DNA of 64,000 bases from an uncultured Planctomycetaceae bacterium (GCA_963815195.1 CAWFGE010000018.1:128001-192000), one strand, 5' to 3'; positions 3,964-64,000 are shown, counted from the stretch's first letter. Numbers and translations: made by a program. Notes: generated by a model not told the origin, from the letters alone.

Positions 3964-3967
3964 GGGT

Positions 3968-44275: not shown

Positions 44276-44325
44276 GATGTTTCTCCCTGTGCGTTAGAAC
44301 GTGTGAAATGCAAATTCCGCCCAAG

Positions 44326-44405: not shown

Positions 44406-44564
44406 CATTTTTGAAACGCAATTGTCCTTCGGACCGGCGGAAGAATCAAGAATCGCGGGTTCGGCGGAATTCGAGGGGTTGGTGGTTCTCATGCCGGCGG
44501 CTCGCGGTTTAAGATGTGAAACCGTTCTGGGCGTTTTTCAAAAACCAGGCAACAGCAGGCCGCG

Positions 44565-46599: not shown

Positions 46600-46615
46600 C
46601 GCCCTGCGGCTAATT
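46551..46615. repeat. Perfect 28-bp inverted REP-like repeat (ATTAGCCGCAG family)
   Basis: AATTAGCCGCAGGGCGCTAGCCCCGGTT-N9-AACCGGGGCTAGCGCCCTGCGGCTAATT; overlaps the stop codon of the debranching enzyme. Confidence 0.85.
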
Positions 46616-46798
46616 CTTTCCACCGGCGGCGAATCGTCCTGGTTCATCCGAACAGTCGCCATAACCGTTTTGGCCGAAAAAACTTTTCCCGACTTTTTGG
46701 CGGGAATCGGTGCGGAAAATATATCCGCGGCGAAAAGGCGCAACTATGCTATTGGCGTCGTCGACTCGGCGGGTATTTTCCAACAAGGCGGGATTATA

Positions 46799-49576
46799 AT
46801 GATTTTGAGCTTTCTGAAATCTTTGTTTGAGACCAGTTCGGTGGTGCGGTCCGATCGGCGGCATCGGCATTCAAGGCGGTTTGCCCATCGGCGGTCGGGG
46901 TTCGGGATCGCCGCGGAAGTATTTGAAGATCGGTGTCTGCTCTCAAACTATTTCTTGAGCGATGCCGTGTACCGCCCTTCGACGAATACCGTGTTCATCG
47001 ATCACAACTTCGACGGCGCGGCGGACGAATCGCGGGTTTACGGCGCGCCCGGCGACTTGTATACGTCGGGGGATTTCAACAACGACGGCCTTTCGGACAA
47101 CGCCGTGCTTCGCGGAGGCACGTGGTTTATCGATGTCACCCGCGACGCCGGGGCCGACTTCATCATCAACTTCGGACAGGCGGGCGACATCCCGCTGATC
47201 GGCGATGCCGACGGCGATGGACTCGCCAACCTGATCTTGTACCGCCCGTCCGACGGGACCTGGCGGATCGACGGAAACGGCAACGGGACCCTCAAGGCGA
47301 CTTCCACGTATGGCGGGCAGGCGGGCGACATTCCCGTCATCGGCGATTTGAACGGCGACGGCCGGCTGGACCGGGCGATCTATCGGCCCGGCGAAGGGAA
47401 CTGGCACGTCGATCTCGGATTCGACAGCCATTACGATTTTACGATCAACTTCGGCGGAGTGCCGGCGGATCGGCCCTTTGTTGCCGACGTGAACGACGAC
47501 GGCTTCGACGACATCGGCATTTTCCGAAACGGCATCAACTATGTCAGCACGTCGCGGAGCTCGGCGGTGACGAACGTGTATTTCTTCGGCTCGGCGGGCG
47601 ATCTTCCCGCGCCGGGCCACCGCAATGTGCGCGGGGTGATCCATTCCCTGCGGGCGAACCTGGGGATTTACCGGCCGTCGAACGGCCTCATCGTGCACGA
47701 GTTCACCGAAGCCGGCTACAGCACGCCCTCGCGGATCTATGGCGGCGCCGCGGTCGATCAGGTCGTCGTGGCGGACTTCAACGGCAACACCGTCACCGAC
47801 ACCGCCATCTTCCGCAACGGGATCTGGTATGTCGACTTCGACCGCAACGCCTCGGTCGATGCGGTGTACTTCTTCGGACAGGCCGGCGATAAAGCCGTCG
47901 CAGGCGACTTCAACAACGACGGCTTCGCGGACCTGGGCATCTACCGCGACGGCACGTGGTTCATCGACACCAACCGGGACGGCGGGGCGGACTTTGTTTC
48001 CAACTTCGGACAGGCCGGGGACACTCCGGTCATCGGCGACTTCAACAACGACGGCTTCCAGGACCGCGGGGTCTATCATCCCGCGGACGGCACTTGGTCC
48101 TTCGACTCGGCTTTCGGCGGCAGCGTGGTGAAGACCGTGACCTTCGGCGGCGAGGCAGGCGACAAGCCGTTCGCGTTCGACTTCAACGCCGACGGCCAGA
48201 CCGACATCGGCGTGTACCGCGACGGGCTGTGGTTCATCGACGACACGCTCCAAGGCAAAGTCTCCATCCTGTTCTTCTTCGGCGGAGCGGGCGACGTTCC
48301 GATTCCCGGCTTCTTCGATCCCGCGCATTCGGTCTTCGTGCGGGCCGGGTCCAACGGCAACGGCACGGAAGCGGCACCCTTCGGCTCGATCACGCAGGCC
48401 CTGGGCGTCGTCGGCAACGGCGGCTTCGTGCGGATCGCGCCGGGGAACTATGTCGAGAACCCCCGCGCTTTGAACCAGCATAACATCACGATCGTCGGAG
48501 CCAGCCGGTTCTACACCAACGTGATTCCGAGCGTCGGGAGCGCCTTCGCGGCCGACACCTCCACGAACATCTACCTCGAAGACTTGACGTTTGCAGCCCA
48601 GGATCCGTCCGTGGAAGCCGGACGGGGCCTTGTGGTGTTCCGCTCCAGCGTCTGGGCCAACGGGATCCGCACGTCCAACAACAAAAACGTGGGCGTGCTC
48701 TCCGCCGCTCCCGCCGGCCAGTTCTCTCAAGTCTCCATCCGCAACTCCGATCTCAACCTCAGCCAGTCCGGGGGCGGCTTCTACTCCCAAAGCAACAGCA
48801 TCGTGCAGCTCGACAATGTCCGCGCCGACCAGAACGGCACGGGCTCGGGAACGAGCGCGACACAGTTCGGGACCGGCATCGTTCTCTTGTCCGGAACGCT
48901 GGCGACGATCCGCAATTCGAGCGGCTCGTTCAACCGCGACCACGGCTTTATCGCCGAGGGCAGCGTCGACGTGCTTTTGGTCAATTCGCACATCGACAAT
49001 AATCCGAACAAGAACGGCGGCATCATCAACGGTCCGGTCCACTTCCAGATCATCGGCACATCGTTCAGCAACAACGGCGGAAACGTCGCCCGCGGTGCCG
49101 CCGGCTTCAACGGCCTGGAAATCGACACCGACGCCAACGGCAGCGGCCTGATCGCCGACTCCACGTTCAACAACAACTCGGCGTTCGGAATCTTCCAGGG
49201 CGCTGGCACGAACATCCTCATCACCGGCTCCCACTTCGGAGGCAACTTCGTGGGGGTCTTCGTCAACGGGTACTTCCAGGGCGGCTTCGTCACCGGCCAG
49301 TCCAACGTGACGATCGTGGCCAGCACCTTTACGCCCTTGAACTCGACGGTCCACGACGAAGGCGTGACGGCCCAAGGCTCGGGCGCCGTTGTCACGGTCG
49401 GCGGCGCGGGGAGCCTGAAGAACATCTTCGACGGCTTCACCGGCGACGATCAGCCGATCCACGCCATCACCAGTCCCGGCGGAGCCCCCTTGATGCAGCC
49501 CGGAAGCGACCTCGCCACCTTCGACGACGCCAACAGCTTCCCCAACACGACCGTGCCCCATTTCTCCACAACATGA
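46799..49576 (+). CDS. Secreted FG-GAP/VCBS-like repeat protein with C-terminal right-handed beta-helix
   Basis: AEVFEDRCLLS planctomycete extracellular motif; repeated FG.AGD.P..GD.N.DG units; VFV.AGS.GNGT.AAPF.SI..AL followed by Asn-rich parallel beta-helix repeats. Confidence 0.85.
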   Translation: MILSFLKSLFETSSVVRSDRRHRHSRRFAHRRSGFGIAAEVFEDRCLLSNYFLSDAVYRPSTNTVFIDHNFDGAADESRVYGAPGDLYTSGDFNNDGLSDNAVLRGGTWFIDVTRDAGADFIINFGQAGDIPLIGDADGDGLANLILYRPSDGTWRIDGNGNGTLKATSTYGGQAGDIPVIGDLNGDGRLDRAIYRPGEGNWHVDLGFDSHYDFTINFGGVPADRPFVADVNDDGFDDIGIFRNGINYVSTSRSSAVTNVYFFGSAGDLPAPGHRNVRGVIHSLRANLGIYRPSNGLIVHEFTEAGYSTPSRIYGGAAVDQVVVADFNGNTVTDTAIFRNGIWYVDFDRNASVDAVYFFGQAGDKAVAGDFNNDGFADLGIYRDGTWFIDTNRDGGADFVSNFGQAGDTPVIGDFNNDGFQDRGVYHPADGTWSFDSAFGGSVVKTVTFGGEAGDKPFAFDFNADGQTDIGVYRDGLWFIDDTLQGKVSILFFFGGAGDVPIPGFFDPAHSVFVRAGSNGNGTEAAPFGSITQALGVVGNGGFVRIAPGNYVENPRALNQHNITIVGASRFYTNVIPSVGSAFAADTSTNIYLEDLTFAAQDPSVEAGRGLVVFRSSVWANGIRTSNNKNVGVLSAAPAGQFSQVSIRNSDLNLSQSGGGFYSQSNSIVQLDNVRADQNGTGSGTSATQFGTGIVLLSGTLATIRNSSGSFNRDHGFIAEGSVDVLLVNSHIDNNPNKNGGIINGPVHFQIIGTSFSNNGGNVARGAAGFNGLEIDTDANGSGLIADSTFNNNSAFGIFQGAGTNILITGSHFGGNFVGVFVNGYFQGGFVTGQSNVTIVASTFTPLNSTVHDEGVTAQGSGAVVTVGGAGSLKNIFDGFTGDDQPIHAITSPGGAPLMQPGSDLATFDDANSFPNTTVPHFSTT

Positions 49577-49591
49577 AGAAGGGACCTGCGG

Positions 49592-51351
49592 TTACCAGCG
49601 CTGCTGGTACATCAGGTACAGCGTCTCCGCGTTGACGGCTTTGTTCGGACCCGCGGTCTTTTGCAGAAAGCCGCCGCCGTAGAGCTTGTTCCAACTGACG
49701 AGGATGTCCGAGTAGCGGGTCATGTGGAAGTTCATCACCAGATCGAACTCGTCGCCCACGTTGCTCCCCGCCCGGCCCGTCGGATCGCGGCGGTAAGCGA
49801 CGCCGCCCGCGTTGTAGAGGGCGTCCCGGCTCTCGGCGAGCCAGAAGTGATGGTACTGCAGCCACGTCGTCACCCAGGGCGTGGGATAGAGATAGAGATG
49901 GGCATTCAGGTCGTGAATGTTTTGCCGACCGACGAGATCCATCCAGCCCAAATAATAATGCCCGAAGGGGAACTGCTGGTTGAAGGTGTGCACCGTGCCG
50001 CTGTTGGGATTGTTATCGCCGCTCGCGTAGTCGTAATACAGCCAAAGCGTCGGCGTGAGTGATGCGTCCTTCCAATTGCGGCCGAGGCCCGCGGTGGCCA
50101 TGCCGGCGAGAAGATCGCTGCCGCCCTGCCGGCCCGATTGGACCGCGCCTTCCACATCCCAGAGCCAGCCGTTGTTGTCGCCCGCCCAGCGGCTGCCGAA
50201 GGTGTTCGTCTGGAAAGGCGACCGCACGATTCCCTGCTGGGCGGAGGTGTTGCTGTTGTCGTAGAGGATGTAATAAAAGTCGCGGGTTTCCCCCTTTTTC
50301 GGCCGGTAGGTCAGCCACGCCGCCGCGAAGTCCTGGTTGGGATCGGCCGTGTCGAACTGGCCGGCCTTGGGCGGAACATACTGCGTCCAGAACGCGTCGA
50401 AGTCCCACTTCTCTCCCTGGCGAAAGACCTTCACGCCTTCGAACGTGTGCCGCTTGTTGGCCCAAGGCAAGGGCGTGATCAACCGCTGCGAACCATAGAG
50501 AAGCTCCTGCCGGCCGCCGCGGACAAACACCGGCTTGCCTTGGAAATCGAATAGCTTCAAATCCACAAACAAGTTCTGAAGGTCGCCGCGGTCGACGTCC
50601 GGCGGCACGGGGCGAAGCTCTTCTCCAAAGCTGTCGGCCCAGATGTATTCGCCATAAACCCGGAGCCAATCGCTGTACCACACGTCGCCGTAAAGCCGAA
50701 CGTGGCTGAGCGTGTAATTGTTATGGGTCGTGGTGAGCCGGCTGTTGGTCTCGTTCGAGTAGCGAAGCCAAGCCTCGCCGCCCGTACTGAAAAGCCAGCA
50801 ATCGTTCCAATGGATCCGCTTGAGCGTTTCGACGAAGGTGCGGTCTTGCGGCGGAATGCTTTCGACATACCGCCAGTCGGCGTCGAAGAACGGCCAGGCA
50901 TTGACGCAAAACGGAGCATAGCCGGATTTGGGCATCGCCGGTGCTTGCGGTTCGTCAGGCAGTCAAGTGCCGAGTAATAATTGAGGCCCTGCGTCGGCGG
51001 GACGGGAAAAATGCCCGGGCGGGGCATGGGATGGATCGTGGCGGGATACTTCGACCAATCGATCAGTTTGCCGTGGCAGCAAGTCTTATAAGGCACCTGG
51101 GACTTGGCCCTTTGGCAGTTCGGGCAATCGCAGGGCGTTTGTTGCGATGGGCCGAACGGTTCCGGCAGCGGCTTGTAGAGGGACGGCTCGCTCGCAGGAC
51201 CGTCCGTTCCCGTGTTGGCGTCAGCATCCGCCGGCGCGGAAGGCGTTTCGAGAGACTCCTGAGCAAATGTCAAAAGAGGCGCGGCCAAAAACGCAGCCAG
51301 CGCCCCGGCAATCCATGAAGATCGCATTGAGGCAAATCCCGCCATGAGCAT
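49592..51351 (-). CDS. Alginate export family outer-membrane beta-barrel protein (frameshift ~50940)
   Basis: VRGGRQELLYGSQRLI, YDYASGD, TFNQQFPFGHYYLGWMD..GRQNI, C-terminal YQQRW; signal peptide in ORF 50557..51351. Confidence 0.85.
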
Positions 51352-51486
51352 TACTCCCTGTGGATATAAATAACACGAGAAGCGCTGCTCGACCCTAGGG
51401 GTCCTTCATCGACGAGGACTCGTGACGGTCTCAAGCATTTTTTCAGGCGGGGCGGTCAGGGAAACTGGCGAAGCTTTGCCGGTTTG

Positions 51487-52424
51487 TCAGACCGGTGCTT
51501 TTTCCACGGCGTCTTGGGGCGGATTGGACGCCGGTTCGTCTTCCTCCTTTTGCACAAGGGCGCGGCGTTTCTTCCAATTGAGTTCCGCCGCCAACGCCAC
51601 CGGGCCCACGAGGAACAGCGCGTAATACGGAGCGTGGATCACTTCGTTCAGCCGCAAGAGCATTTCCACAACCGCCACCAGAAACACCACCAGGCATTGG
51701 CCCCATTTCGTGCTCACGGTCGTCCGCGGATCGGTGATCATGAAGAACACGAACAGTTGATACATCGGCCCCGTCAACGGCGCCACACTCGCCAGGAACG
51801 GGCTCCCGGTAATCAGGCTCCGCAAACCGGACAGCGCGACGAAGGACAGCACGTAAGTCAGGCAGATGTGGAACCGTTTGAGCCGGCTGATAATCAGCGT
51901 CCCCAAACACCAGATCACAATCATCGCCCACACCGAATTGCCCCATTGAATGCTCAAGGGAGCCACCGCGGCCGCGTACAGAAACAGCATCGCGCTCACG
52001 CCGAAGTTGGACGGGTTCCACAAATGCCGATTCTGCCAGCGGAGCACATACTTGGAGAGGATCGACAGCGCCGAACACAGCGCATAAGGCCAGAACAGCG
52101 GCGAGCGGAGCAGAATCCCCACGCTGATCCCGGAGATATAGGCGCTCGCCAGATGCGGGAACTTCCCGGCGATGAATCGCCCCAAGACCAGTTCGCAGGC
52201 GATCGACGTGGCAATCGCCAACAGCGTCCGCGTCCAACTTTCCAGCACACCGAAGGTGAGTTGGCTCACGAGCAGAATGCACGTAATCAGCCCCGGCGCC
52301 AAATAGCGGTTTTCGAGGCTGAAGAAATTCTTGGCGCCCCGGCCTTCACCGGTTGGCCGGCGGTCGATGCTGGTGCGGTCGTCATGGTTTGTTCCGCGCG
52401 AGGTTGGTTGATGGTGTCGCTCAT
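51487..52424 (-). CDS. RnfD/NqrB-like membrane protein (enediyne UnbU-like), frameshift ~52340
   Basis: SAYISGISVGILLR, SKYVLR...HLWNPSNFG, FFMITDPRTT; the ATG at 52424 overlaps the upstream TGA (ATGA) but is out of frame by one base. Confidence 0.8.
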
Positions 52425-54217
52425 TTCGGCTCCTGGATTTTATGGATCCGGTCGGGTTCCGGATGTTCGATGACCTGCTCCTTTCCGGAGGGCCAGCGAA
52501 TCGTGACTTTGTCGATGTCTTTATGCTGACCCAGTCCGAAGTGCAGCCGGCGTTGATTCTCCGCGGCATAACCGCTGGCGGCGACGAGTTCCTGGAGCTG
52601 CTGCTGATCGTTCCAGAACACCCGAACCTGGGCCCCGATGGCGCTTTTGTTGCTGCGCGTGCCTTCGAGTTCAAAATCGATCCAATGCCGATCCTGGGCC
52701 ACCTGGTTTTTGTACAAAAGCAACGGCCCGCGCTGGTTGGCGACCAACACGTCGAGGACGCCGCGATTTCCCAAATCGGCCAAGGCCACGGCCCGGCCGT
52801 CCAGCTTGTCGGTCGCCCCCACGAACTGGGCCACATCCTGAAACTGCCCGGCCCCGTTGTTGAGCCAGACCCGCTTCGACTGATGCCCCGCCAGGCTCCG
52901 GCCCTTCATCGCCGGCCAGTTCTTGGCATCGGAAATAATCCGCGAATGCCCGCCGGTGATCTCGGAAAAATCGTACCAATAGTCCGTGCCCTCGTCGCCG
53001 GAGACGTAGCCGTTGGTGAGATACAGATCGACAAAGCCATCGTTATTGAGGTCGCCGAACTGCGCCCCGAAGCTCCACCCGCCGAGCTCGATGCCCATCA
53101 CCGATGCGAGGTTTTCGTAACGGGGCGATTCCTCGTCGCCGGGAAACCAAAGGTTGTTCCCCTGGAGGAGCACGCCTTCTTCGGAGATGTTCGTCTCATA
53201 AATCGCGAGCCGGCCTTGATTGAGCACATCGCCGACCGCGGCGTTCATGCCGCTCTTGGGGGCATAACCCACGCCGCTTTCTTTGCCGATCTCGCGAAAC
53301 CGCCGGCCGCCGTCGTTCAGAAACATTTCCGAAACGCCGTAGTCGTTCGCGAGAAACAGATCCGGAAACGCGTCGTTATTGAAGTCCGCCGAGACGACGG
53401 CGAGCGTCCACCGCCGGCTGTCGATGCCGGCTTTCGCGGTCACATCCTCAAACCGCCCGCCGCCTTTGTTTCGGAGCAGCCACTTTCGGCCGCCGTTGTT
53501 GGCGTATTCAAAACTCTCCGGCATGATTCGCGTATGCTCAAGTTTCTCCAGCCGCACATCGTCCGGCCAATAGCCCGCGAGGAACAGATCGATCCAGCCG
53601 TCGCGGTCGTAATCCAGCCAGGTTGCGGCCCCGGCGTTCGACCACTCGGGCATTCCCGCCGACTCGGTGATCCTTTCAAAACCTTTGCCCGCTTGATTGC
53701 GAAACAGCTCCACCGTGCCCCACTTGTAAACGAGCACATCTTCGTAGCCGTCGTTGTCGATGTCGGCCCAGACGGAGCCCATCGAAGCCCCGCTGCCCGG
53801 CTCGTTGAGCTTCGCGAGGCCTATCTCCACGGCGACATCATCGAACGTGCCGTCCTGCTGATTGCGGTACAGCCGATTCAAACTGCCGGGCGCACTGTTG
53901 GTGACGTAGAAATCCTGCCAGCCGTCGCGGTCGAAATCCACGATGCTGACGCTGGCCCCCATCGCCGCGATCTGCGGGCCGATGTGTTCGAGCCGGGCGT
54001 CGATCCGCGGCTCCTTGTGCACAAAATCGATCCCGGCTTTTTTCGCCGATTCGTGCAGCACGAACCCGTAGCGGTCGAGCAGCTCCTTGACCTCTGCCGG
54101 CGATTTGGTCGAAGCGGGCGCGCTTTCCTGCGAACGAAGCCGCAGGTAAACCCACGGTCCGACCAACAGGCCGAGGAACACGATCGTCAGAATCTTGCGT
54201 TTGGTCTCTAGGGTCAT
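52421..54217 (-). CDS. CRTAC1/ASPIC-UnbV family protein (FG-GAP propeller + ASPIC/UnbV domain)
   Basis: DFDRDGWQDFYVTN, D.DNDG..D, DFNNDAFPDLFLANDYG, GMNAAVGD, GWSFGAQFGDLNNDG; SN.SAIGA.V...SGY..EN..RLHFGLG...IRWPSG. Confidence 0.9.
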   Translation of the reverse strand: MTLETKRKILTIVFLGLLVGPWVYLRLRSQESAPASTKSPAEVKELLDRYGFVLHESAKKAGIDFVHKEPRIDARLEHIGPQIAAMGASVSIVDFDRDGWQDFYVTNSAPGSLNRLYRNQQDGTFDDVAVEIGLAKLNEPGSGASMGSVWADIDNDGYEDVLVYKWGTVELFRNQAGKGFERITESAGMPEWSNAGAATWLDYDRDGWIDLFLAGYWPDDVRLEKLEHTRIMPESFEYANNGGRKWLLRNKGGGRFEDVTAKAGIDSRRWTLAVVSADFNNDAFPDLFLANDYGVSEMFLNDGGRRFREIGKESGVGYAPKSGMNAAVGDVLNQGRLAIYETNISEEGVLLQGNNLWFPGDEESPRYENLASVMGIELGGWSFGAQFGDLNNDGFVDLYLTNGYVSGDEGTDYWYDFSEITGGHSRIISDAKNWPAMKGRSLAGHQSKRVWLNNGAGQFQDVAQFVGATDKLDGRAVALADLGNRGVLDVLVANQRGPLLLYKNQVAQDRHWIDFELEGTRSNKSAIGAQVRVFWNDQQQLQELVAASGYAAENQRRLHFGLGQHKDIDKVTIRWPSGKEQVIEHPEPDRIHKIQEPK

Positions 54218-57200
54218 CGCTTCGTTTCTCCGGTCAATGTCCGCCCGTTCGCCCGCCAGAGCGTCTGCTGAAATCGGCGGGGCGTGATGTATCTTGTGTG
54301 ATAGGTTTGCCAGTCTTCGGGATGTTTGCGGTAAACCGGATCCTCGGCGAGCGGCAGAAGCGGCCCGGCATAGTCCTTCTGGTCATGCGCCGGCAGCGGG
54401 CGGACCCATTGGGAAAACGCCGTGTTAAAGTCGCCATCCTTCACCCAGCCGTCGCCGACCAGAACAAAATCGCGAGTCCAACCCGCGGGCGGATCGGTTT
54501 GCTTTTCAAACTCGAACGCCAACTCATCGCCTGCGTTCATGATGACGTAGCGGTCATCGACGTTCGCCAACAGTTCCCGCACATCGCCGAAGCGCGTGTA
54601 AAACCCTTCGAGATCCGCCCAGAGCTGCCCGGAGGCGCGGGCTTCATAAATCGGCGTGTCGGGACGCAGGCGATCCGTGGGCCGAAGCTTCGAATAGCCG
54701 CGCTGCCGCAATTCCGCGGTATGTGTTGGCAACTTTGTAATGATCGGCTCGGTATCTTCAACCTGATAACTCCAGCCGAGGAAGTCCCAATAGACTTCCA
54801 TATTCGTTCGCAGCCGAAATCTTCGCGAAACGCCCAGCGACTGCGGAGGCAGTTCAATCACAACGTCTTTGTTCTTCCCGGCGGGGAATCCCAGGTTGTC
54901 CCGCAGCGGTTCCCAGACGCCTGCCGGATTTTTCTGTTCGAGGACGAGTCCATAAGGCTTCGCCGTGCCGCCTTGGCTGATCGCCACGTTGATGGAACTA
55001 TCCGTCGGATAAATCCACCCATGTCCCACGATCAGCACCGGCCGCTCGGCGGACACCTGGGACGGAATTTCAAACTCGACCCAATGCTCTTCCGCCACGC
55101 CTTGGTACTCGCCCAAGGCAAAACTGTCTACATATCGGCCGTCGACGGCTTGGAGCTTTTCGTCCAATTTGTTTCCGCGATGATCGGAGACGTTCAATAG
55201 CGGCTGCGGTTTCGTTGTCGCGACGACTTTTTGAGCCGGGCTCTCGTTGGGCACGAACCGCTCATCGACATAAACTTCCACATCCGCCGGGTGATCGACC
55301 GCCAAAAGCGAAACGTGATCGAAGAAATGCGTCTCCCAAAGCTCGGCGGTGATCCGCACCGGATAGCGGCCGGCTTTCGCGGCGAGGCGGCCGCCGGGAA
55401 TCTTGATCCAATCCTCGGTCTGCGCGACGCCCGCCGTCGCCTGGGCGTTGATCCGCAGCCCCAACGGAGACCGCCAGATGAAGTCCTTGATGAAGCGAAA
55501 CTTCTCGCCGTCGAAGGCAAACACCCACGGGCAAGAGCCTTTGAGCCGCTGCGTCGCCACCGTCGCCTCGCCGGTTTTGAGATCGAACTCGGCTTGAAAT
55601 ACGCCGTTGGGCCAGACGAAGCGGGCCACGTCCGCTTGTTTGTGCCGGCCCAAGCCAAAGTGCACGCGGGGCGATTGGATCGCGGCCGCCTCGACCAGAT
55701 TGCCCGCGCGGATCTCAATCCGCCCGCCGATGCCGAACGAATTGATCCGCCTGTCACCGGCTCCGGTGTTCGCTTTGGGTTCGATGACAAGCCAACCATA
55801 ATCGGCCGGGCTTTGATTGACCGCCGTCACGCCGGCGTTTTCCGACATCCCCACCAGATCCAAAAGCCCATCCCCGTTGACATCGCCGATCGAAGTCACG
55901 CGAAGCTGCGGCGATCCGCCGAGCTTGCTCCAAGACCCATCTGACCCGCGGAGCCAGATGCCCGTTTCGTTTTTCACCCCCGCAATAACGTCCACGCCGC
56001 CGTTATTGTCCACATCCGCCACGGCGAGAAATACCTCTCCCGGCTTCGCATTCGCCAGGGATTTTTGCGGCCACGTTGTCAACGGCGACTCTTTCCACTG
56101 GCCTTCATCGGCCCAGGTCGCCAATCGCAATTCGCCCGACTTTGTTAGCGATACTAGATCGAACTGCCCATCGCGATCGGCATCGCCTAGCGCAATCGCC
56201 AGCCTGGGCTGCTCATGCTCGAGCGCGCTTCCCGTGAAATTTCCGCCTCGATCGTTCCGCCAGATGGAAATGGCTCCCGCGGCATCGAGCGTGACGAGAT
56301 CGATGTCGCCGTCGCCGTCGAGATCGACCGCCCGCAGATCGCGGACATTTTTCGCGGGGATGAAACTGTCCATCGCGGTGAAAGTCAGGTCGCCGTTGTT
56401 GCGGATCCAACGGAGGGGAGACCGGTCATCGGACAAGAGCAAATCCAGATCGCCGTCGGCTTCGACATCCACAGCCCACACCGCCCGCCAGGATTGATCG
56501 AATTCTTTGAGCTCAGGTTGCTTGGGAGCGAAGGAACCGTCTTCCTGCCCGAGGAAGATCCGCAAACCTTTCTCGCCGACTAAAACCAGGTCTTCGCGGA
56601 AATCGAAATTCAAATCCAGGGCGGCGATGCTTGCAGAATCGGCGTTCGTCGTGGATCCTGGAAAGGGCAGCGCGGCCGAACTCTTCGTGTGAAGCGAATT
56701 GCCGGACAGCGACAAAAGGGTCGAGCTTCGCTTCCCGGATTGCTCCACAGCCAGAACGAGGTCCGGCCGCGCTGCTTTTTCAGAAGTCTCTTTAAGATCA
56801 AACGCCAATTTGAGATCGGCATCCGCGACCTGGGCGGGCGGAAACTCCAGACGCAAAAACGACCGCAGCGGCGTCCCGATTTCTCCCGCATCCCCGATCC
56901 CCAAAGCCGCGATGCTTTCTTGATAGGCGGGCGTGGGCTTCAATACGTTTTCAAAGAACGTCAGCGACAACGCCGCCTTGCGAAAATCCCCGCCCTGCGC
57001 CGCTTGATCCGCATCCGCCAATTTCTGCCGGGCCAGTTCGGGCCATTGATCACGATCATCCAGCAGCGAATCGAGCGACTTCCGCAGAACATCCCCCTGT
57101 TTGAGCGTCGCGGCGAGCCGGGCCTGTTCCGCGCGAACCCGCAGGTTCTCCGGGGCGTATTTCAGAACGTCCGACAGCAGATCGAGCCGCTCTTCCTCGG

Positions 57201-57714
57201 CCGCGCCACTTTGAACCTGCCCCAGAAGCTGCGTCAGCGAATAGGTGGCGGCGATGTTCTTCGGCCAGATTTGATGCACCTTGCGAAGCTGCTCGATTGC
57301 CTTTTCGATCTCGCCCGAGTGTTCATGGACCTCCGCTTGAAGAAGCGCCACTTCGCGAGAATCGGCCGCCAGAGCCTGGGCCTTGTTGAGCGCCTCCTGG
57401 GCCGGTTGCATCTGCCGCAACCGCATCTCGGTGACCGCCAGGTTCGCCCACAAGGCCGGCTCGCGAGGCTCGGCCGCGACCGCTTTCTTCAATTGCGCGG
57501 CGGCGAGCTGGTTCGATCCGACATCGAGCGCCGCCAACGACGTATAGAACTCCGAGACCACCTCTTCCCCGACGACCTCTTTTTCGGGAGCGGGTTTTTG
57601 ATCTCCGTCCCGAACGAACACCCAGTAACCGACGCCAAATGCAACGACCAACACGATCGCGACGACGCTCGCGATCAATAGGAATCGTTGCGTGCTCTTC
57701 GGTGTTTCGTTCAT
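54214..57714 (-). CDS. TPR + FG-GAP + ASPIC/UnbV multidomain membrane-anchored protein
   Basis: N-terminal TM, TPR-like helices, D.DGDGD.D repeats, NSFGIGGRIEI...VHFGLG...VWPNG, then LKGSCP and a long C-terminal domain (EL.E..FFD, GWVKDGD.NT). Confidence 0.88.
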   Translation of the reverse strand: MNETPKSTQRFLLIASVVAIVLVVAFGVGYWVFVRDGDQKPAPEKEVVGEEVVSEFYTSLAALDVGSNQLAAAQLKKAVAAEPREPALWANLAVTEMRLRQMQPAQEALNKAQALAADSREVALLQAEVHEHSGEIEKAIEQLRKVHQIWPKNIAATYSLTQLLGQVQSGAAEEERLDLLSDVLKYAPENLRVRAEQARLAATLKQGDVLRKSLDSLLDDRDQWPELARQKLADADQAAQGGDFRKAALSLTFFENVLKPTPAYQESIAALGIGDAGEIGTPLRSFLRLEFPPAQVADADLKLAFDLKETSEKAARPDLVLAVEQSGKRSSTLLSLSGNSLHTKSSAALPFPGSTTNADSASIAALDLNFDFREDLVLVGEKGLRIFLGQEDGSFAPKQPELKEFDQSWRAVWAVDVEADGDLDLLLSDDRSPLRWIRNNGDLTFTAMDSFIPAKNVRDLRAVDLDGDGDIDLVTLDAAGAISIWRNDRGGNFTGSALEHEQPRLAIALGDADRDGQFDLVSLTKSGELRLATWADEGQWKESPLTTWPQKSLANAKPGEVFLAVADVDNNGGVDVIAGVKNETGIWLRGSDGSWSKLGGSPQLRVTSIGDVNGDGLLDLVGMSENAGVTAVNQSPADYGWLVIEPKANTGAGDRRINSFGIGGRIEIRAGNLVEAAAIQSPRVHFGLGRHKQADVARFVWPNGVFQAEFDLKTGEATVATQRLKGSCPWVFAFDGEKFRFIKDFIWRSPLGLRINAQATAGVAQTEDWIKIPGGRLAAKAGRYPVRITAELWETHFFDHVSLLAVDHPADVEVYVDERFVPNESPAQKVVATTKPQPLLNVSDHRGNKLDEKLQAVDGRYVDSFALGEYQGVAEEHWVEFEIPSQVSAERPVLIVGHGWIYPTDSSINVAISQGGTAKPYGLVLEQKNPAGVWEPLRDNLGFPAGKNKDVVIELPPQSLGVSRRFRLRTNMEVYWDFLGWSYQVEDTEPIITKLPTHTAELRQRGYSKLRPTDRLRPDTPIYEARASGQLWADLEGFYTRFGDVRELLANVDDRYVIMNAGDELAFEFEKQTDPPAGWTRDFVLVGDGWVKDGDFNTAFSQWVRPLPAHDQKDYAGPLLPLAEDPVYRKHPEDWQTYHTRYITPRRFQQTLWRANGRTLTGETKR

Positions 57715-58325
57715 GGGGCATCATCCATTCTGCTGTCCGCCGGTTGCGGTGTTTTCCGCGAAAGGGCTTCTCCGGAATCCGCGGCCGCGAGAAGCCGTTG
57801 ACGCCGGCGAATCATCGCAAACACCCAAAACCCGCCCAGAAACGCAAAGGGAAACAGATAGATCACAAAGTCCCAGGTCCCGTAGCCCGGCGGCGTGGAT
57901 TCGATTTCCGTCGTCAACTCCGCCATCTTGCCGCCGGGCGGCGTGACTTGAAAACCGACCGTCCAGAAATCGCGCTGATCGAAATAAGGCTCGGCTTTGA
58001 ACTCGACCTGGTTTTTCAGATCCTCCTGCTTCGCGTCATAGGTCGCCCGCTCGAGCCGGCCGCTTTTCGGTTCGGTCCACATCGAGACCTCGGGAATCTC
58101 ATCCGGCACTTTGCCTTCCAGGGATTTGATTATGATAAAAAACCTCGCGTCGCCGATGTCCGGATCCGCATAGACCGAAACCGTATAGCCTGCGAGCGGC
58201 TTGTCCATCAGGATCGGAAACGGCGGCCCTTCGTGCGCGAACGCGGTCTCCGTCCCAACGAGAACAGCGATCACCAAGAGGATCAAACGAACGATCGGCT
58301 TGCTTCGTGTGAAGAATGAAATCAT
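57711..58325 (-). CDS. Exported membrane-anchored protein with predicted mature N-terminal His
   Basis: Signal peptide ending AFA|HEGPPFP; C-terminal TM followed by RRR. Confidence 0.8.
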   Translation of the reverse strand: MISFFTRSKPIVRLILLVIAVLVGTETAFAHEGPPFPILMDKPLAGYTVSVYADPDIGDARFFIIIKSLEGKVPDEIPEVSMWTEPKSGRLERATYDAKQEDLKNQVEFKAEPYFDQRDFWTVGFQVTPPGGKMAELTTEIESTPPGYGTWDFVIYLFPFAFLGGFWVFAMIRRRQRLLAAADSGEALSRKTPQPADSRMDDAP

Positions 58326-58326
58326 C

Positions 58327-59841
58327 TCAAGCTCCCAGGAATGTGCCGCGCATGTCCATGGGCTGGTTCATAATCCACACGGCGGAGACGAACAGCACGA
58401 CGTGCAAAACGGCCCAAGGCCAAAAGCCCGCCCCGCCGCGCTGGGGCGAACGGTCCCGCGCGAGGCACCACGCCGTCATCAACGAGCCCAGAAGCCCGAG
58501 GCTCATCAATCCAATCTCCATGGGATACACGATCGAATCCGGCAGCCCGCCCAACCGCCACAGCGGTTCGCCCAACACCGCCGTTCCGAATGCTTTCAGC
58601 GCCGCGTTCTGGGCGACGGGGATAATCGTCAAACAGCCCGTGAAGAAGTGAAATCCATAATGCGCGAGCCAGACGCCGAACCCGATGGGGAGCAACGACC
58701 GGGCAAAGCGGTTGATGATCGCCAGCAACGATTCCTCGGAGCCGGTGAGTCGCCGGGTGAGGAAGGCCGCGGTCGTCAGCAGAATCGCGGGCTCCAAGAT
58801 CAGGCCGACCGAAAACAGGCTGCCGAGGATCGGCCATTCGACGGTGAGTCCCGTCGCGTTTGCGATCCCTTGCTCCACCACGTAGACCGGGCTGGTCATC
58901 GCGAACGCATTGAGCAGCGCACCGAACGTAAACAGCACGGCGAGGGCGGTGAAATCGAATCGGCGTTCGATCGTGCCCAGCCCCGACCGCGTGCCGCTTT
59001 CCGTCAGTTCCTCGGCCGGCAAGCGGGCCAAAACGCCGACGTTGTCGTGCGGGCAGGCATACACGCAGTCCAGGCAGAACGTGCAGTCGAGGTTTCCGAC
59101 TTTCCGCGGCTGAAACAGGGCCAGTTCGCAGCCGCGCTGAATGATCGGCAACTCGTTCGCTTCGTTTGCCTCAGCGTTCGTATCCGACGAAGCGCGAACG
59201 CCGCGGATGCAATCTTTCGTTCGGCAATGGGTGCAAACATCCGCATCCCGCACCGCCACTTCCAAGGGCGACATGGTCGAGCTCAAAAAATTAAACTGTC
59301 CGACCGGACACACGTATTTGCAAAACGCCGCCCGGTGAAACACCGCATCGACAACAAGAGCCGCCGCGAAATAGCCCACGATCAACACGCCGGTCCAATA
59401 AGGGTTGGACCAAAAGTCGAACAGCTCATACGCAAACAGCACCAGAACGAACATCGCGATCGCCAGCCATTTGTTTCGCAGACGGCGGGGCCATTCCCAG
59501 CGGGGCTTAAAGAACCTCCGGGCCAATTCGCGGGGCAGCATGAACGGGCACGCCATGCAGAACAGGTTCCCCGCCAGCAACAGCACGACGACAACCATGC
59601 CCCGAAAATGCACCCATGTCAGAAGGGCCGCGAGGTTTTTGGGCGCCTCTTCCGGGCCCCAGAACGCGTGGGCGATCATCAGCAGGCTGAGCAACAACAG
59701 CGGGACCTGCAGCACCGTCCGCGACCACCGCCAGCGCAAAAACCGCCCCAGCCCCGGCACGCGCAAGAGGTCGAAGGAAGTCCCCGGACCCGAGCCGCGC
59801 GGCGGCCTGGCCTGTGAACTTCGCCGATCTTCCACTGCCAT
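58327..59841 (-). CDS. Membrane polyferredoxin (NapH/MauN/CcoG/NosR-like 4Fe-4S binding protein)
   Basis: GNLFCMACP, RAAFCKYVCP, CTHCRTKDC...GC, DCTFCLDCVYACP, ~9 TM helices; start MAVEDRR at 59841. Confidence 0.88.
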   Translation of the reverse strand: MAVEDRRSSQARPPRGSGPGTSFDLLRVPGLGRFLRWRWSRTVLQVPLLLLSLLMIAHAFWGPEEAPKNLAALLTWVHFRGMVVVVLLLAGNLFCMACPFMLPRELARRFFKPRWEWPRRLRNKWLAIAMFVLVLFAYELFDFWSNPYWTGVLIVGYFAAALVVDAVFHRAAFCKYVCPVGQFNFLSSTMSPLEVAVRDADVCTHCRTKDCIRGVRASSDTNAEANEANELPIIQRGCELALFQPRKVGNLDCTFCLDCVYACPHDNVGVLARLPAEELTESGTRSGLGTIERRFDFTALAVLFTFGALLNAFAMTSPVYVVEQGIANATGLTVEWPILGSLFSVGLILEPAILLTTAAFLTRRLTGSEESLLAIINRFARSLLPIGFGVWLAHYGFHFFTGCLTIIPVAQNAALKAFGTAVLGEPLWRLGGLPDSIVYPMEIGLMSLGLLGSLMTAWCLARDRSPQRGGAGFWPWAVLHVVLFVSAVWIMNQPMDMRGTFLGA

Positions 59842-59843
59842 CG

Positions 59844-60233
59844 TCACTGGGCTTTCACTCCCGGCACGTCGATCTTTCGCTCGACGGCCTTTCCATCGGA
59901 CGTTTTCGCCGAGACCAGAATAAACCAGTCTCCGCCCATCGTAAACTCGAGCGTCCCCGCGTAACGTCCCGGTTCGGTTTCTTTCAAATCCGCAAACGAA
60001 GGCTTCATGCCCGCGTGGTTCATATTGCCTTCCACCTGGACCGTCGCCCCCTCGAGCGGCGCCCCTTGGGCATGCGTGAGGTTCAGCGTCAGATGATTCT
60101 CGCCCACGACCGGCGGGTCGGGATCGAGCGCCAACTCCGCCTTCACATCCGGCGAATCGGACGGAGCCGAATGGCAACCCCCCACGAAGAGCAAGAACGC
60201 CCCGGCACACAGTCCTACGATCAAACCTTTCAA
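59844..60233 (-). CDS. YtkA/FixH-like lipoprotein
   Basis: TTG start after GAAGGAGG; VGG|C lipobox; G.PLEGA.V.VEGNMNHAGM.P...E..PGRY....F.MGGDW. Confidence 0.85.
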   Translation of the reverse strand: MKGLIVGLCAGAFLLFVGGCHSAPSDSPDVKAELALDPDPPVVGENHLTLNLTHAQGAPLEGATVQVEGNMNHAGMKPSFADLKETEPGRYAGTLEFTMGGDWFILVSAKTSDGKAVERKIDVPGVKAQ

Positions 60234-60258
60234 AACAGCCTCCTTCCCGCGGTTCGGT

Positions 60259-60453
60259 TTAGCTAAAGCGGGCGGGGTTGGTTCGCCATAACAGTCCCAG
60301 GCAGCCGCCGGACGCCAGCCCGCCAATCAACAGCACCGCGCGGGCTCCGGCCATTTTCTCCGGAGGGAGTCCGCCGGCCCAAACCCAGCCGGCAATCGAA
60401 ATCCCCACCAGCGCCAGCAGAAACACGGTAATAATCGAGCGAATCAAATTCAT
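60259..60453 (-). CDS. Small 2-TM hypothetical protein
   Basis: 64 aa, two hydrophobic helices, AGAGGT RBS, located inside the operon. Confidence 0.65.
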   Translation of the reverse strand: MNLIRSIITVFLLALVGISIAGWVWAGGLPPEKMAGARAVLLIGGLASGGCLGLLWRTNPARFS

Positions 60454-60490
60454 GCTCGCACCTCTTGCCTTAGAAGAATGACTAAAAACA

Positions 60491-60570
60491 TGAGCGGTCG
60501 CCGCTCGCCTCCGGTTTCGATGAAAGGATATTCGCAACACCAAGACCGGAGGCGAGCGCCTCGCCGCTCA
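60491..60570 (-). mobile_element. ~80-bp MITE/REPIN-like element, copy C
   Basis: Reverse complement aligns with 34071-34148, including the spacer CCTTTCATCGAAACCGGAGGC. Confidence 0.7.
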
Positions 60571-60571
60571 C

Positions 60572-61174
60572 TCATGTCTGGGCCGCCGGGGCCGGGGCCG
60601 TGCGGGGATGCCACGCACACGAGCAGCCGTGATGGGCTTCTTCGCCCGGCAGCGGGAACATGTGGTAGAACATCGCGACCACCATCGGCACGAACACCAC
60701 CGTGTTATAAAACAGGTGCAACTCCACCCGCGGAACCACCAGCTGCACGAGGCTCACGGGCACGGGCGAGCCGAACAGGTTGTGATGCAGGATCGCCTGC
60801 GATTGGAGAATGGCATGTTCGATGTGGTGCCAGAACTGAATCCAAAACGCGATCATCCACCATGTGTAGGACTGCCCCACAAAACCTTTCCGCAGAATCC
60901 AAAACGCGATGAGCATGATCAAGGCGTAGCCGTAGTGCAGGGCTTCCGATTTGACGAGCCACGGGGCAAACAGCCCGAGAAAGCCGTACGATTCTTTGAC
61001 CGGCCAGTGCAGCAAATAAATCTGCGTCGCCTGGGCCAGATGCTCGGCCCAGTGCGCCAGAACAATTGCCGTGTAAATCCACAGGGCTTGCTTATGGTAG
61101 GGGCCGTTGATTTTTTCCATCCAGGTCATGTTCTCGTGGGCCTGATTCACGGAACAGGCGGCAGTCGATGACAT
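60572..61174 (-). CDS. His-rich 4-TM membrane protein with duplicated HxxEH motif
   Basis: HWAEH...EALHYGY and HHIEH...ELHLFY; HHGCSCAWH tail; GGAGGT RBS. Confidence 0.85.
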   Translation of the reverse strand: MSSTAACSVNQAHENMTWMEKINGPYHKQALWIYTAIVLAHWAEHLAQATQIYLLHWPVKESYGFLGLFAPWLVKSEALHYGYALIMLIAFWILRKGFVGQSYTWWMIAFWIQFWHHIEHAILQSQAILHHNLFGSPVPVSLVQLVVPRVELHLFYNTVVFVPMVVAMFYHMFPLPGEEAHHGCSCAWHPRTAPAPAAQT

Positions 61175-61406
61175 GGCGAACCTCCACGGTTAGGAAATGC
61201 TGAGGAATCCCCCAGGCGAAACTTTCATGGGGGACGATGGGATCAAACCGAGCGCAGCATGCGCGCCGGAACATGACCAAAGTCCGCAAACGCGAGAAGC
61301 TTCATCTGTGAAACAGCTTTCGTGCGCAGCTTTTTTCGTTTGTGAAAAAGGGCAAGCACGTCCCGCGGGGGGATCGGATCTTCACAGACGTTGCGGACCG
61401 TCTCCG

Positions 61407-61829
61407 CTAAGCGCGCGGAGGGTGTTCGATGCGGAGCGGATGACCGTCGGAGAGAATCAGAGCCGCCACCGTCGGCAAGGCTCTCGGGTCATCGGGGGGC
61501 GATTCGGTTTCCGTCTCCGGCCGCCAAACCTGGTCGGTCCCCGTGGGGGCCGTCGAAGTCGGAGCCATCGGCACGGGGGGATTGGAATCCCGGCCGCAGT
61601 TTGGACCGTGGCACGGCCGAGGCGTCGGGAGCGGCGAGTGGGAGTTTTGACTCCGTGCGGCGTCCGTTTTCTTGACGGAGTGGGCCAAATAATCGCCGCA
61701 ACTCGCAAAAACGGAGGCGGGGAACGCGCACAAAGCGAGCGCAAGGCCTGTTCCAACCAGGAACACGAATGAAGACCGGGAACAGGCGATGGGAAACGGT
61801 GAAGTGAAAGAAAGATCGCCGATCAACAT
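61407..61829 (-). CDS. Leader ORF / DUF2946-like putative metal-sensing arrest peptide
   Basis: Hydrophobic N-terminal segment, ASCGDYL, PCHGPNC, Pro-rich spacer, C-terminal RIEHPPRA. Confidence 0.65.
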   Translation of the reverse strand: MLIGDLSFTSPFPIACSRSSFVFLVGTGLALALCAFPASVFASCGDYLAHSVKKTDAARSQNSHSPLPTPRPCHGPNCGRDSNPPVPMAPTSTAPTGTDQVWRPETETESPPDDPRALPTVAALILSDGHPLRIEHPPRA

Positions 61830-61837
61830 ATCTCTCT

Positions 61838-61866
61838 AGGTTAAAGCGAGATCCCGCGAATGTCAA
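61838..61866 (-). promoter_or_regulatory. Sigma70-type promoter of the 61.8-49.6 kb operon
   Basis: TTGACA (61866-61861)-N17-TAACCT (61843-61838) on the minus strand. Confidence 0.6.
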
Positions 61867-62016
61867 TCGGGCGAATCCTTCCGCTCGCCCGGGTGCCGAT
61901 CCTCGCCATCTCCACGGAGATGTCGCAGCCCGAATCCTCTCCGCCTGCCCCAAGACCAAAGTCGATCTCCAAGGCGCATGCCAATCCAACGCGGAACCGG
62001 CTGCGACCCGCAGCGA

Positions 62017-62301
62017 CTAATGCTTATAGACCTTATGCTGCGGGCGGGTCGAGAGGATCTGCTCCTTGCCCCAGTCGGTCACCGCGCGGAACTCGTCGCT
62101 GCGAATGAACTCTTGAAACGCCTTTTCGTCCGACCATTCGCTGGTAATCAGATACGAGGCGTCGTCCGAGACATCTTTCCACAACGTGGACTGGGAATGC
62201 CCTTCCGCGGTGTTCAGGGCGTTCATCACGGCCTGGAATTTGTCTTCAAAATCCTGCTGCTTGCCTTCGATCACATGGTAATTCATGCCGACGGTAATCA
62301 T
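62017..62301 (-). CDS. Antibiotic biosynthesis monooxygenase (ABM) family protein
   Basis: MITVGMNYHV..GKQQDFE..F...GH..S.L...YLI.SEW.DEKAF..FI.S..F; AAGGTG RBS. Confidence 0.85.
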   Translation of the reverse strand: MITVGMNYHVIEGKQQDFEDKFQAVMNALNTAEGHSQSTLWKDVSDDASYLITSEWSDEKAFQEFIRSDEFRAVTDWGKEQILSTRPQHKVYKH

Positions 62302-62369
62302 TTGAGATAGCACCTTTTCTGGGGGTTAATTCAAAAGTGGAACGACAAATCGAAAACCGAGACGTCCGG

Positions 62370-64000
62370 TTACATCATTCCTTCCAGCACTTCCGGCGGG
62401 GCCTCGGCGTATTTTAAGGGTTCCATCGAATAGGAAGCCCGGCCTTGCGAGAGGCCCCGGCTTTCGTTGGAGTAGCCGAACATCTGCGACAGCGCCGCTT
62501 CCGCCTCCAACACGCACAAGTCGCCCCGGCGTTCGGAATTGATAATGTGCGCCCGGCGTTTGTTGAGGTCCGCCTGGATGTTGCCCAAAAAGTCTTCCGG
62601 CGTCACGACTTCCAGCCGCATAATCGGCTCCAACAGGACCATGGCTTTCTCGTCGATCGCCCGGTTCAAGGCCTCCCGGAATGCATGCGAACCCGCGGCT
62701 TGAATCGCCACATCCGTGGTTTCGCCTTCGCGGTAGTCCACGTCCAAGAGCGTGATCTTGACTTTCATCAAAGGATAACCCACCACGCCGCCGCCCGCGG
62801 CCTGATCCTTCAAAGTTTCCAAAAGCACGTCCAACAAAGCCGGCGGCAACTCGCCCGGCTTGAGCTTGTTGACGATCGTCACCGGCTTTTCGCTCTCGAA
62901 CGGCTCGAGCTGCACGGTCACGCGGGCGTACTGCGTGACCCCCGCCGACTGGCGGCTGAAATGTCCTTCGCCTTTCACCGGCTTGTTGACGGTCTCGCGG
63001 TAGCTGACCCGCGGCTTGTGGACCTTGACCTTCAAGTTGAAATCCCGCTCCATGCGGTGTTTGAGGACTTCCAGATGGAGTTCGCCCATGCCGCTGATAA
63101 TCGTCTGCCCGGTTTCCTCGCTGACGTTGGCCCGGAACGTGGGATCCTGCCGGGACAACCGGGTCAAAGTGTCGGCGAGGGCTTTGCGGTCCGCGGAGGA
63201 CTCCGGCTCGACCGCCATCGAGATCACCGTTTCCGGGAAGGTGATGCTTTCCAAGAGGATCGGCTTGGGCGTGTCGCAGAGCGTGTCCCCGGTGACCACG
63301 TCCTTGGGGCCGATGACGCCCACAATATCGCCGGCCTCCACCTCGTCCGTCTCCAGCTTTTCCCGGCGGTCGGCCTGGATGTGCCACAACTGATTGATAA
63401 GTTCCTTCTTCCCCGTGCGGGGGTTGAGCATCCGCGAACCCGATTTGAGCACTCCCGAATACACCCGCACAAAATTGAGATCCGCGTGCTTGTCGGCCAC
63501 GATTTTGAAAATCAAACCGCAAAACGGCTCGTCCGCCCCCGGCTTGCGGATTTCCGGGCCTTTGTCCTGCTTTTTGGGATTGGGATTCAGCCCGCGGATC
63601 GGCGGGACATCGAGCGGACTGGGCAGATAATTGGCGACGGCATCGAGCAAAGGCTGCACGCCGATGTAATTCAGCGACGACCCGCAAAACGTCGGCTGAA
63701 GCTGCCCGTGGATCGTCGCGAGCCTGAGCAGCCGGTGGATCTGTTCGACGGGCACATCTTCCGTCTCCATGTAGGCCGCGAGAACATCATCGTCCAAGAG
63801 AGCCACCGACTCCACCAGTTTCTGCCGCCATTTTTTGGCTCGGCCCTGATGCTCTTCGGGAATGTCCTTGACCTCGAAGTTCTTGCCCTGGCTTTCGGGA
63901 TCGAAATACAGAGCCTTCATTTCGATGAGGTCGATGATGCCCGTGAGGGCATTCGGATCGGGCGGAGAGCCGGCTCCCATCGGGATCTGGACGGCGATCG
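62370..64000 (-). CDS. fusA: Elongation factor G (5' part outside window), probably a secondary paralog
   Basis: GVQPLLDAV..YLPSP, FVRVYSG, ETGQTIISGMGELHLE, P.VSYRET, LLEPIM.LEVVTPE, MFGY...RGLSQGRA.YSME...Y. Confidence 0.93.
   Translation of the reverse strand, partial: IAVQIPMGAGSPPDPNALTGIIDLIEMKALYFDPESQGKNFEVKDIPEEHQGRAKKWRQKLVESVALLDDDVLAAYMETEDVPVEQIHRLLRLATIHGQLQPTFCGSSLNYIGVQPLLDAVANYLPSPLDVPPIRGLNPNPKKQDKGPEIRKPGADEPFCGLIFKIVADKHADLNFVRVYSGVLKSGSRMLNPRTGKKELINQLWHIQADRREKLETDEVEAGDIVGVIGPKDVVTGDTLCDTPKPILLESITFPETVISMAVEPESSADRKALADTLTRLSRQDPTFRANVSEETGQTIISGMGELHLEVLKHRMERDFNLKVKVHKPRVSYRETVNKPVKGEGHFSRQSAGVTQYARVTVQLEPFESEKPVTIVNKLKPGELPPALLDVLLETLKDQAAGGGVVGYPLMKVKITLLDVDYREGETTDVAIQAAGSHAFREALNRAIDEKAMVLLEPIMRLEVVTPEDFLGNIQADLNKRRAHIINSERRGDLCVLEAEAALSQMFGYSNESRGLSQGRASYSMEPLKYAEAPPEVLEGMM

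Follow-up and report, generated by a model that had tools for sequence, protein, structure and literature searches.

What do relatives of the enediyne proteins E4 (UnbV), E5 (UnbU) and SgcS do in an operon that has no polyketide synthase (PKS) and that also carries candidate copper-delivery genes? The question is raised by a ten-gene operon in a 64,000 nt stretch of DNA, here called the window, from an uncultured Planctomycetaceae bacterium (GCA_963815195.1, CAWFGE010000018.1:128001-192000) whose genome is 94.6% complete. The genes, g1 to g10, all lie on the minus strand, with g1 transcribed first, and their union makes the question testable: does this chemistry involve a copper site? The system is real, conserved, modular and uncharacterised; its parts all have known relatives, and the open-access literature gave no description of the combination under its gene names. 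We propose, with a probability of about 0.5, that the E4/E5-type pair, the SgcS-type protein and a copper-loading kit form a copper-dependent oxidation system at the outer face of the inner membrane, while an involvement of copper as such appears highly probable. This proposal is supported by a linkage between module and core that is kept through rearrangement (upstream, downstream and inverted) and by the joining of the module to two separate E5 clades, that of the window and the enediyne type. The homology of g2 to SgcS and the fit of g1 to the rules for CutF-like leaders go beyond an initial annotation of this DNA.

The operon consists of the following features.
61838..61866, minus strand: sigma-70-like promoter candidate, TTGACA-N17-TAACCT, recognised by sequence, 8 nt 5' of the g1 start; function presumed
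61407..61829, minus strand: g1, CutF/CruR-like leader of 140 aa with export signal, CGDxLxH, PCxGPxC and C-terminal IEHPPR
60572..61174, minus strand: g2, SgcS-like four-helix membrane protein, homologous to C-1027 WQO_RS34010, with HxxEH..ExxH..HxxEH..ExH
60259..60453, minus strand: g3, two-helix membrane protein of 64 aa with homologues in module loci and no family
59844..60233, minus strand: g4, YtkA (CtaK-like) lipoprotein by Pfam, with M71-x-H73-x-G-M76
58327..59841, minus strand: g5, membrane polyferredoxin of the NapH/CcoG superfamily, with CxxCP, CxxxCP and eight more Cys
57711..58325, minus strand: g6, exported YtkA-like domain with C-terminal anchor, His first in the predicted mature protein
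54214..57714, minus strand: g7, membrane-anchored TPR, FG-GAP and ASPIC/UnbV protein by Pfam, with a conserved C-terminal domain of ~440 aa
52421..54217, minus strand: g8, E4 (UnbV)-type anchored beta-propeller, with FG-GAP, UnbV_ASPIC and E4 signature residues
51487..52424, minus strand: g9, E5 (UnbU)-type membrane protein with NqrB/RnfD fold, by homology to E5s and Foldseek
49592..51351, minus strand: g10, alginate-export-family outer-membrane porin by Pfam (Alginate_exp)

A conserved core and an optional module

All ten co-oriented genes are present at 49592-61829 in the order given by the initial annotation, and that order extends to other genomes: g2-g4-g5-g6-g7-g8-g9 recurs in 20 of 80 loci and in Planctomycetota, Verrucomicrobiota and Acidobacteriota. 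These loci are the best 80 of 583 confirmed, fetched by g9 alignment in a scan of a genome collection (19 of its 64 parts covered), and close relatives are therefore over-represented among them. Tallies use 10 kb flanks, and upstream porin copies can fall outside them; one locus counted here (L069, genome G378) and one genome counted in the second phylum sample below (G459) are flagged as unpublished. An E4-type propeller lies directly ahead of an E5-type protein in 79/80 loci. The frequencies of the genes are 79 for g8, 75 for g7, 31 each for g5 and g6, 29 for g4 and 26 for g2, and among the 65 loci with at least 9.7 kb of upstream sequence g5 occurs in 29. The operon is composed of two modules, an E4/E5 core (79/80) and an optional g2/g4/g5/g6 module (31/80), the latter lying downstream or inverted in L051, L068, L079 and L081. 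Eight more Planctomycetota loci encode g8 and g9 without g7, which reduces the minimal unit to the E4/E5 pair. The suggestion of a trans-envelope system holds insofar as the order is conserved and several genes point to copper, but this is not one fixed machine, as the core stands alone in 49/80 loci and an alginate-export porin is found in only 16/80 (12 of the 31 module loci versus 4 of the 49 others).

Neither 44000-64000 nor, by eye, the other open reading frames of at least 300 aa in the window showed a PKS, thioesterase or oxidase gene, and none of the 80 loci gave a PKS, thioesterase, E3 or SgcT match within 10 kb. Nor is the optional module alien to enediyne chemistry: the g2 family itself belongs to enediyne clusters, and the whole module occurs on a PKS-E3-E4-E5 cluster in the acidobacterium G469 (L134 and L121, G469:C4, ~31000-59000). 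On one strand, this non-canonical, enediyne-like cluster encodes a PKS, a phosphopantetheinyl transferase, an acyl carrier protein-reductase, a desaturase, DUF1702 (E3), a halogenase-like flavoprotein, two RoxA-like di-heme proteins and a catalase-like protein, followed by E4, E5, g2, g4, g5 and g6. Its E5 falls in the enediyne-type clade and not in that of the window; both placements come from a quick tree of 105 rows with long branches meeting at the clade joins. G469 also has a second E5-like gene, directly ahead of a ketosynthase on C58. Fusions of E5 and E4 of ~950 aa (L131:5865-8717 and L133:8200-11034), adjoining Rieske oxygenase-type and GNAT-like genes, suggest that the pair acts together. 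A canonical E3-E4-E5-PKS cassette is found in the planctomycete G054 (L094:5743-15457). DUF1702 was not found in the genome of the window, although the G054 positive control matched, and its best match to the G054 PKS (33%, contig C13) is unlinked to the operon.

The system is widespread and present in cultured hosts, including Stieleria and Roseiconus (L008, L009), and an estimated ~2000 stored genome stretches, other clades included, match the g9 search patterns. Its spread is nonetheless patchy, with a strong g9 match in 4/61 related genomes and the E5 clade of the window in 17/300 of the phylum. Genomes bearing g2 also have an E5-like gene in 5/5 cases from a Planctomycetota sample (17/300, as above) and in 2/2 from a second phylum sample (31/250).

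Halogenase-like flavoproteins adjoin the core in 20/80 loci. A possible obligatory third module, a block of asparagine-synthase-like, radical SAM, halogenase-like and NMT1-ABC genes, was dismissed: it lies beside only 19/80 cores (17/49 without the module, 2/31 with it), is unlinked to the operon in this genome (C21), occurs in 20/61 related genomes, mostly without g9, and is found in 12/50 core-bearing genomes tested (50 of the 80 taken). The asparagine-synthase-like, RaSEA-like radical SAM and halogenase-like trio of this genome is at G000:C21:35090-38840 (L088); the tallies of 20/61 and 19/80 refer to its first gene. One further locus, G040:C13:13000-39000 (L092-L093), combines both E5 clades with the copper module, the radical SAM trio, AhpD-like genes and a porin, and a Metabacillus plasmid (L116:9300-10687) pairs an E5-like gene with a redoxin in the absence of E4, close to genes for mercury and copper resistance.

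Within the window the tight spacing previously described applies to the junctions from g4 to g9 (1-2 bp or 4-bp overlaps) but not to the wider gaps between g1 and g2 (232 bp), g2 and g3 (118), g3 and g4 (25) and g9 and g10 (135), with starts as chosen here. The proposed promoter is present at 61866-61838 but is not among the sites passed by a consensus scan (2 found versus 3.4 expected), and a looser pattern occurs 92 times genome-wide. The better argument for a promoter is its repetition, as TTGACA-N17-TATCGT, at the same position ahead of a g1 paralogue on contig C9. In the window assembly g9 and g10 each contain a one-base frameshift (near 52336 and 50942). The extra base is present in near-identical short-read contigs of run X1, possibly the source sample (one contig per site, depth 5-6), the close g9 homologues P0002 and P0003 cross the site in one frame, and further genes of the same genome are split likewise, so we regard both breaks as assembly errors. 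The X1 contigs restore both frames, on which ground genuine pseudogenes were rejected, and yield 312 aa for g9 and 586 aa for g10; with its frameshift mended, the porin starts at 51351. A glycogen debranching enzyme elsewhere in the window (44565-46599, plus strand) also lies in two frames, probably owing to another assembly indel.

A putative dimetal protein and its candidate copper-loading genes

The g2 protein is 53% identical over 169 aa (E 1.5e-65) to WQO_RS34010 of the C-1027 producer, the gene directly after sgcE1 in the enediyne cluster. We assign it the name sgcS by position and size against rows 58-62 of Table S3 in PMC5181780, not by accession; the supplement of that paper lists its function as unknown. 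In an alignment of g2 homologues (97 of 153 rows kept, by length), six His are 91-94% conserved, and together with four Glu (84-95%) the range is 84-95%. The predicted model is a four-helix bundle (predicted local distance difference test score 80) in which His41/45, 80, 116/120 and 153 would lie on one side, judging by helix direction. The two HxxxH + H sets may correspond to a dicopper site of the type-3 or PmoC-like kind, and carboxylate-bridged di-iron sites use HxxEH together with ExxH/ExH-type motifs; g2 likely holds a dimetal site. No Foldseek match to the model was found at E <= 0.001, a VIA fold search returned generic bundles (best Z 7.8), and PDB sequence searches gave no match for g2 or g5; Pfam and NCBIfam assign no family to g1, g2, g3 or g6. 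Among 14 matching records in a plasmid collection, 12 are Streptomyces plasmids, all with an E5 within 4.9-10.3 kb and with no g5 adjoining SgcS; the other two, a Nonomuraea record and a Geminocystis plasmid, gave no g9 match.

Copper is likely indicated by four different genes, g1, g4, g5 and g6, on the evidence of their sequences. The g1 protein has a hydrophobic stretch at 22-40 by hydropathy, an HPP at 136-138 and a distance of 232 nt to g2, and it passes all the filters for CutF-like leaders given in PMC9973294: <150 aa, a signal peptide, PP in the last 15 residues and a same-strand gene within 1000 nt. A leader mechanism is described for CutF/CruR in PMC9426467, and PMC9973294 cautions that such leaders are not all copper-specific. 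A g1-like layout precedes g2 in 6/31 loci scanned, all six Planctomycetota, and a similar pattern occurs in 12/1000 random windows. Neither g1 nor four homologues matched Pfam DUF2946 (E up to 5). We consider g1 likely to be a metal-sensing upstream open reading frame. Its paralogue (56%; G000:C9:43586-44029, L089) has the same -35 box and spacing and precedes genes for NHL/PQQ-like propeller and ABC binding proteins, likely another operon that responds to metal.

The g4 protein matches YtkA (1.7e-14) and FixH (1.1e-5) in Pfam, and its MxHxGM motif (M71, H73, M76) is present in 38/38 rows. It has every feature of YtkA/CtaK proteins, namely the YtkA domain, a lipoprotein Cys and conserved His/Met; YtkA domains of CtaK and YcnJ act in CuA assembly (PMC9145763, PMC13344008), and g4 is likely a copper chaperone. 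The g6 protein had been described as an exported protein with an N-terminal His. This His (H31) is indeed the first predicted mature residue, directly after the signal cut, in 39/40 rows, the 40th being truncated by the locus end, but a hydrophobic anchor at 154-172 would tether the protein instead of leaving it free. Its Atlas neighbours are named YtkA-like, with Pfam YtkA on 14% of one cluster, and a role as a copper binder is likely. For g3, 11 clear homologues were found, in module loci. At 3073-4897 (minus strand), 45 kb from the operon, the window also encodes an MbnB/TglH/ChrH (DUF692) enzyme followed by DUF2063, a pair known from copper-linked clusters for ribosomally synthesised and post-translationally modified peptides.

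Matches of g5 to Fer4_5 fall below the Pfam cut-off and to NapH/MauN (NCBIfam, 7e-11) far below it, while CxxCP, CxxxCP and eight other Cys are found in 39/39 rows. A sister family with 37-45% identity is fused to Caa3_CtaG in 3/3 members scanned by Pfam, with seven long forms listed, and in a scan of 33 of 56 neighbours its genes end COX1-COX3-cytochrome c-Rieske-cytochrome b operons in three loci and accompany bc genes in three more. In Acidobacteriota such Caa3_CtaG-polyferredoxin fusions close oxidase/bc operons (L101-L107); to our knowledge a CtaG-CcoG-like hybrid has not been described. CcoG is a cupric reductase, and g5 is likely a copper reductase or electron donor. It is not a canonical FixG: it lacks FixG_C and CtaG domains, no cbb3 oxidase operon is linked to it, and profile searches of this genome found neither Caa3_CtaG nor FixG_C.

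A Pfam run bore out the domain content claimed earlier: YtkA in g4, TPR, FG-GAP and UnbV_ASPIC in g7, FG-GAP and UnbV_ASPIC (1e-22) in g8, and Alginate_exp (3e-81) in g10, while g9 matched NQR2_RnfD_RnfE (1.8e-6). The C-terminal domain of g7, spanning residues 720-1166, had no Pfam and no credible PDB match, and a short match to replication factor C (6e-4) was judged to be chance. The g8 protein is 26% identical to C-1027 E4 and 29% to G054 E4, and a PDB sequence search returned CRTAC1 only. Residues M232, N241, W270 and W434 of g8 are common to 9/9 E5-partnered E4s, and W414 to 8/9; none is found in 20 generic ASPIC/UnbV proteins. The g9 protein, 27-29% identical to E5s, has no credible match in a PDB sequence search but a fold similar to NqrB/RnfD (Foldseek E 2e-5, template modelling score 0.6-0.68). 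It keeps the NP and TDP motifs and a preceding Lys, presumably a riboflavin site. A T-x-A-T-P threonine loop, the motif for covalent flavin mononucleotide (FMN), is present in three RnfD-type proteins and absent from g9, the E5s and the Metabacillus homologue. We rejected g9 as an Rnf/Nqr subunit, as it lacks this loop; no other Rnf/Nqr subunit is nearby.

Proposed mechanism and competing explanations

In the mechanism we propose, g1 would sense copper during its translation and set expression of the downstream genes. Electrons drawn from the quinone pool by g5 would reduce Cu(II), and g4 and g6 would ferry the copper in the periplasm to its client g2, in which six His, arranged as two HxxxH + H sets, could bind two coppers. 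The g9 protein may move electrons across the membrane via a non-covalent flavin; without the FMN-threonine loop their path would need an outside acceptor, for which the docked propeller g8 is a candidate. A scaffold or an extra catalytic domain may be provided by g7, and g10 would admit the substrate, which does not come from a PKS encoded alongside. By analogy with the iodide-dependent enediyne step, the chemistry would most likely be an oxidation, halide-linked or desaturating, that acts on a small hydrophobic molecule. E3, E4 and E5 reportedly make a diiodotetrayne. The title of Gui et al. 2024, given in the reference list of PMC12308405, names a diiodotetrayne intermediate, and CuSO4 and NaI are both ingredients of the media used for dynemicin, tiancimycin and yangpumicin (PMC8210685), a pairing also found in enediyne media in PMC11069151.

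Besides the kept linkage and the two E5 clades, this reading draws on the copper pointers from four genes, on g2 beside E5 in 12/12 Streptomyces plasmids, on the co-occurrence of g2 with E5-like genes in the two phylum samples, on the E5-E4 fusions, on the copper and iodide of the enediyne media and on the halogenase-like neighbours of the core. Several observations weigh against such a copper-dependent oxidation system. In 49/80 loci the core has no g2/g4/g5/g6 module beside it, and 34 of those 49 genomes have no g5 match anywhere; g2 is absent from 5/31 module loci, one of which ends at a contig end. In 4/5 Planctomycetota genomes module and core are not linked, and the 5/5 co-occurrence of g2 and E5 is weak because the genomes come from three families rich in E5-like genes (f30 5/6, f12 4/7). 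A g2 homologue lies on the Geminocystis plasmid without E4/E5 among its annotated neighbours, and no g2 match was obtained for 34/46 E5-bearing Streptomyces plasmids, which makes SgcS optional in Streptomyces too. The counts overstate independence, since close kinship is common among the Streptomyces plasmids and among the acidobacterial loci. The four conserved Glu of g2 fit iron as well, and PMC8210685 tests Cu only jointly with iodide and malt extract.

Three other explanations compete with this system. The operon might serve copper uptake or homeostasis only, with porin, binders and reductase feeding g2 as a CtaG-like membrane copper carrier and no small-molecule substrate. Most CutF/CruR-like leaders precede genes of copper homeostasis (PMC9426467, PMC9973294), CtaG in the sister family of g5 holds the polyferredoxin-adjoining place of g2, and the fold of g9 is also like urea and Rh channels (Foldseek E 0.008-0.8). 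We nevertheless consider this unlikely, as it leaves unexplained both the recurrence of g2, E4 and E5 together in PKS clusters and the genes found next to the core (halogenase-like, radical SAM and asparagine-synthase-like), and it sits poorly with the patchy spread of g9. Less likely still, g2 could be a membrane enzyme with a di-iron site, similar to desaturases or oxygenases and supplied with electrons by g5, copper being incidental or destined for another protein such as g7. This would account for the HxxEH (twice) and ExxH/ExH motifs with their conserved Glu, in line with di-iron sites, and desaturase and heme peroxidase-like genes abound in the G469 cluster. However, g2 is transcribed first in a module whose three other members point to copper, its six His match the dicopper pattern, and no g5 stands beside Streptomyces SgcS.

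Very improbably, g2-g6, as a kit for copper assembly in an oxidase, and the E4/E5 genes are two unrelated units that are passed on together. The unlinked modules of the Planctomycetota sample and the service of the g5 sister family to heme-copper oxidases are compatible with this, as are three COX1 matches in this genome, which lacks recognisable Caa3_CtaG and FixG_C; those COX1 loci, however, are all on contigs other than that of the operon. The translational coupling of g4 to g9, a linkage that persists across three arrangements and two E5 clades, and the position of g2 after E5 in Streptomyces without the remaining kit argue against two separate units. As a bolder and doubtful extension of the copper-dependent oxidation system, E4/E5 with SgcS could be a general copper-dependent envelope oxidase platform, in which SgcS would found a new family of dicopper enzymes in the membrane. 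Enediyne producers would have borrowed the platform for iodination and alkyne formation, while Planctomycetota and Acidobacteriota would use it PKS-free, with their own copper-loading kit, for halide-linked oxidation. If true, this borrowing would explain the copper in enediyne media.

Comparison with known systems

The operon resembles the enediyne cassette E3/E4/E5/E/E10 (C-1027 sgc) in its E4-then-E5 order, the E4 signature residues of g8 and the SgcS homologue g2. It differs in lacking a PKS, thioesterase, E3 or SgcT homologue, as do all 80 loci, in carrying in addition g7, a polyferredoxin, two YtkA-like proteins, a leader and a porin, and in a g9 that falls in a separate 92-row clade of the quick tree. 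E3, E4 and E5 are listed as conserved and of unknown function in PMC9992847. With RnfD/NqrB, g9 shares the fold and the NP/TDP motifs but not the FMN-threonine loop, and a separate, full-score member of that family is encoded on contig C22 of this genome.

The likeness of g1 to CutF/CruR leaders lies in its length of <150 aa, export signal, Cys motif, C-terminal PP, first place in the operon and the long spacer behind it, whereas it has Cx4C rather than CXXC and HPP/RPP rather than RAPP. It differs from DUF2946/CruR in a motif spacing of ~57 versus 45 residues and in the lack of a DUF2946 match. Heme-copper oxidase assembly factors (CtaK/YtkA, Caa3_CtaG, CcoG/FixG and FixH) are echoed by the YtkA domain of g4, with its His/Met, and by the CtaG-fused sister family of g5. 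However, no oxidase gene is linked to the operon, and the proposed client of its copper would be g2 or the E4/E5 unit.

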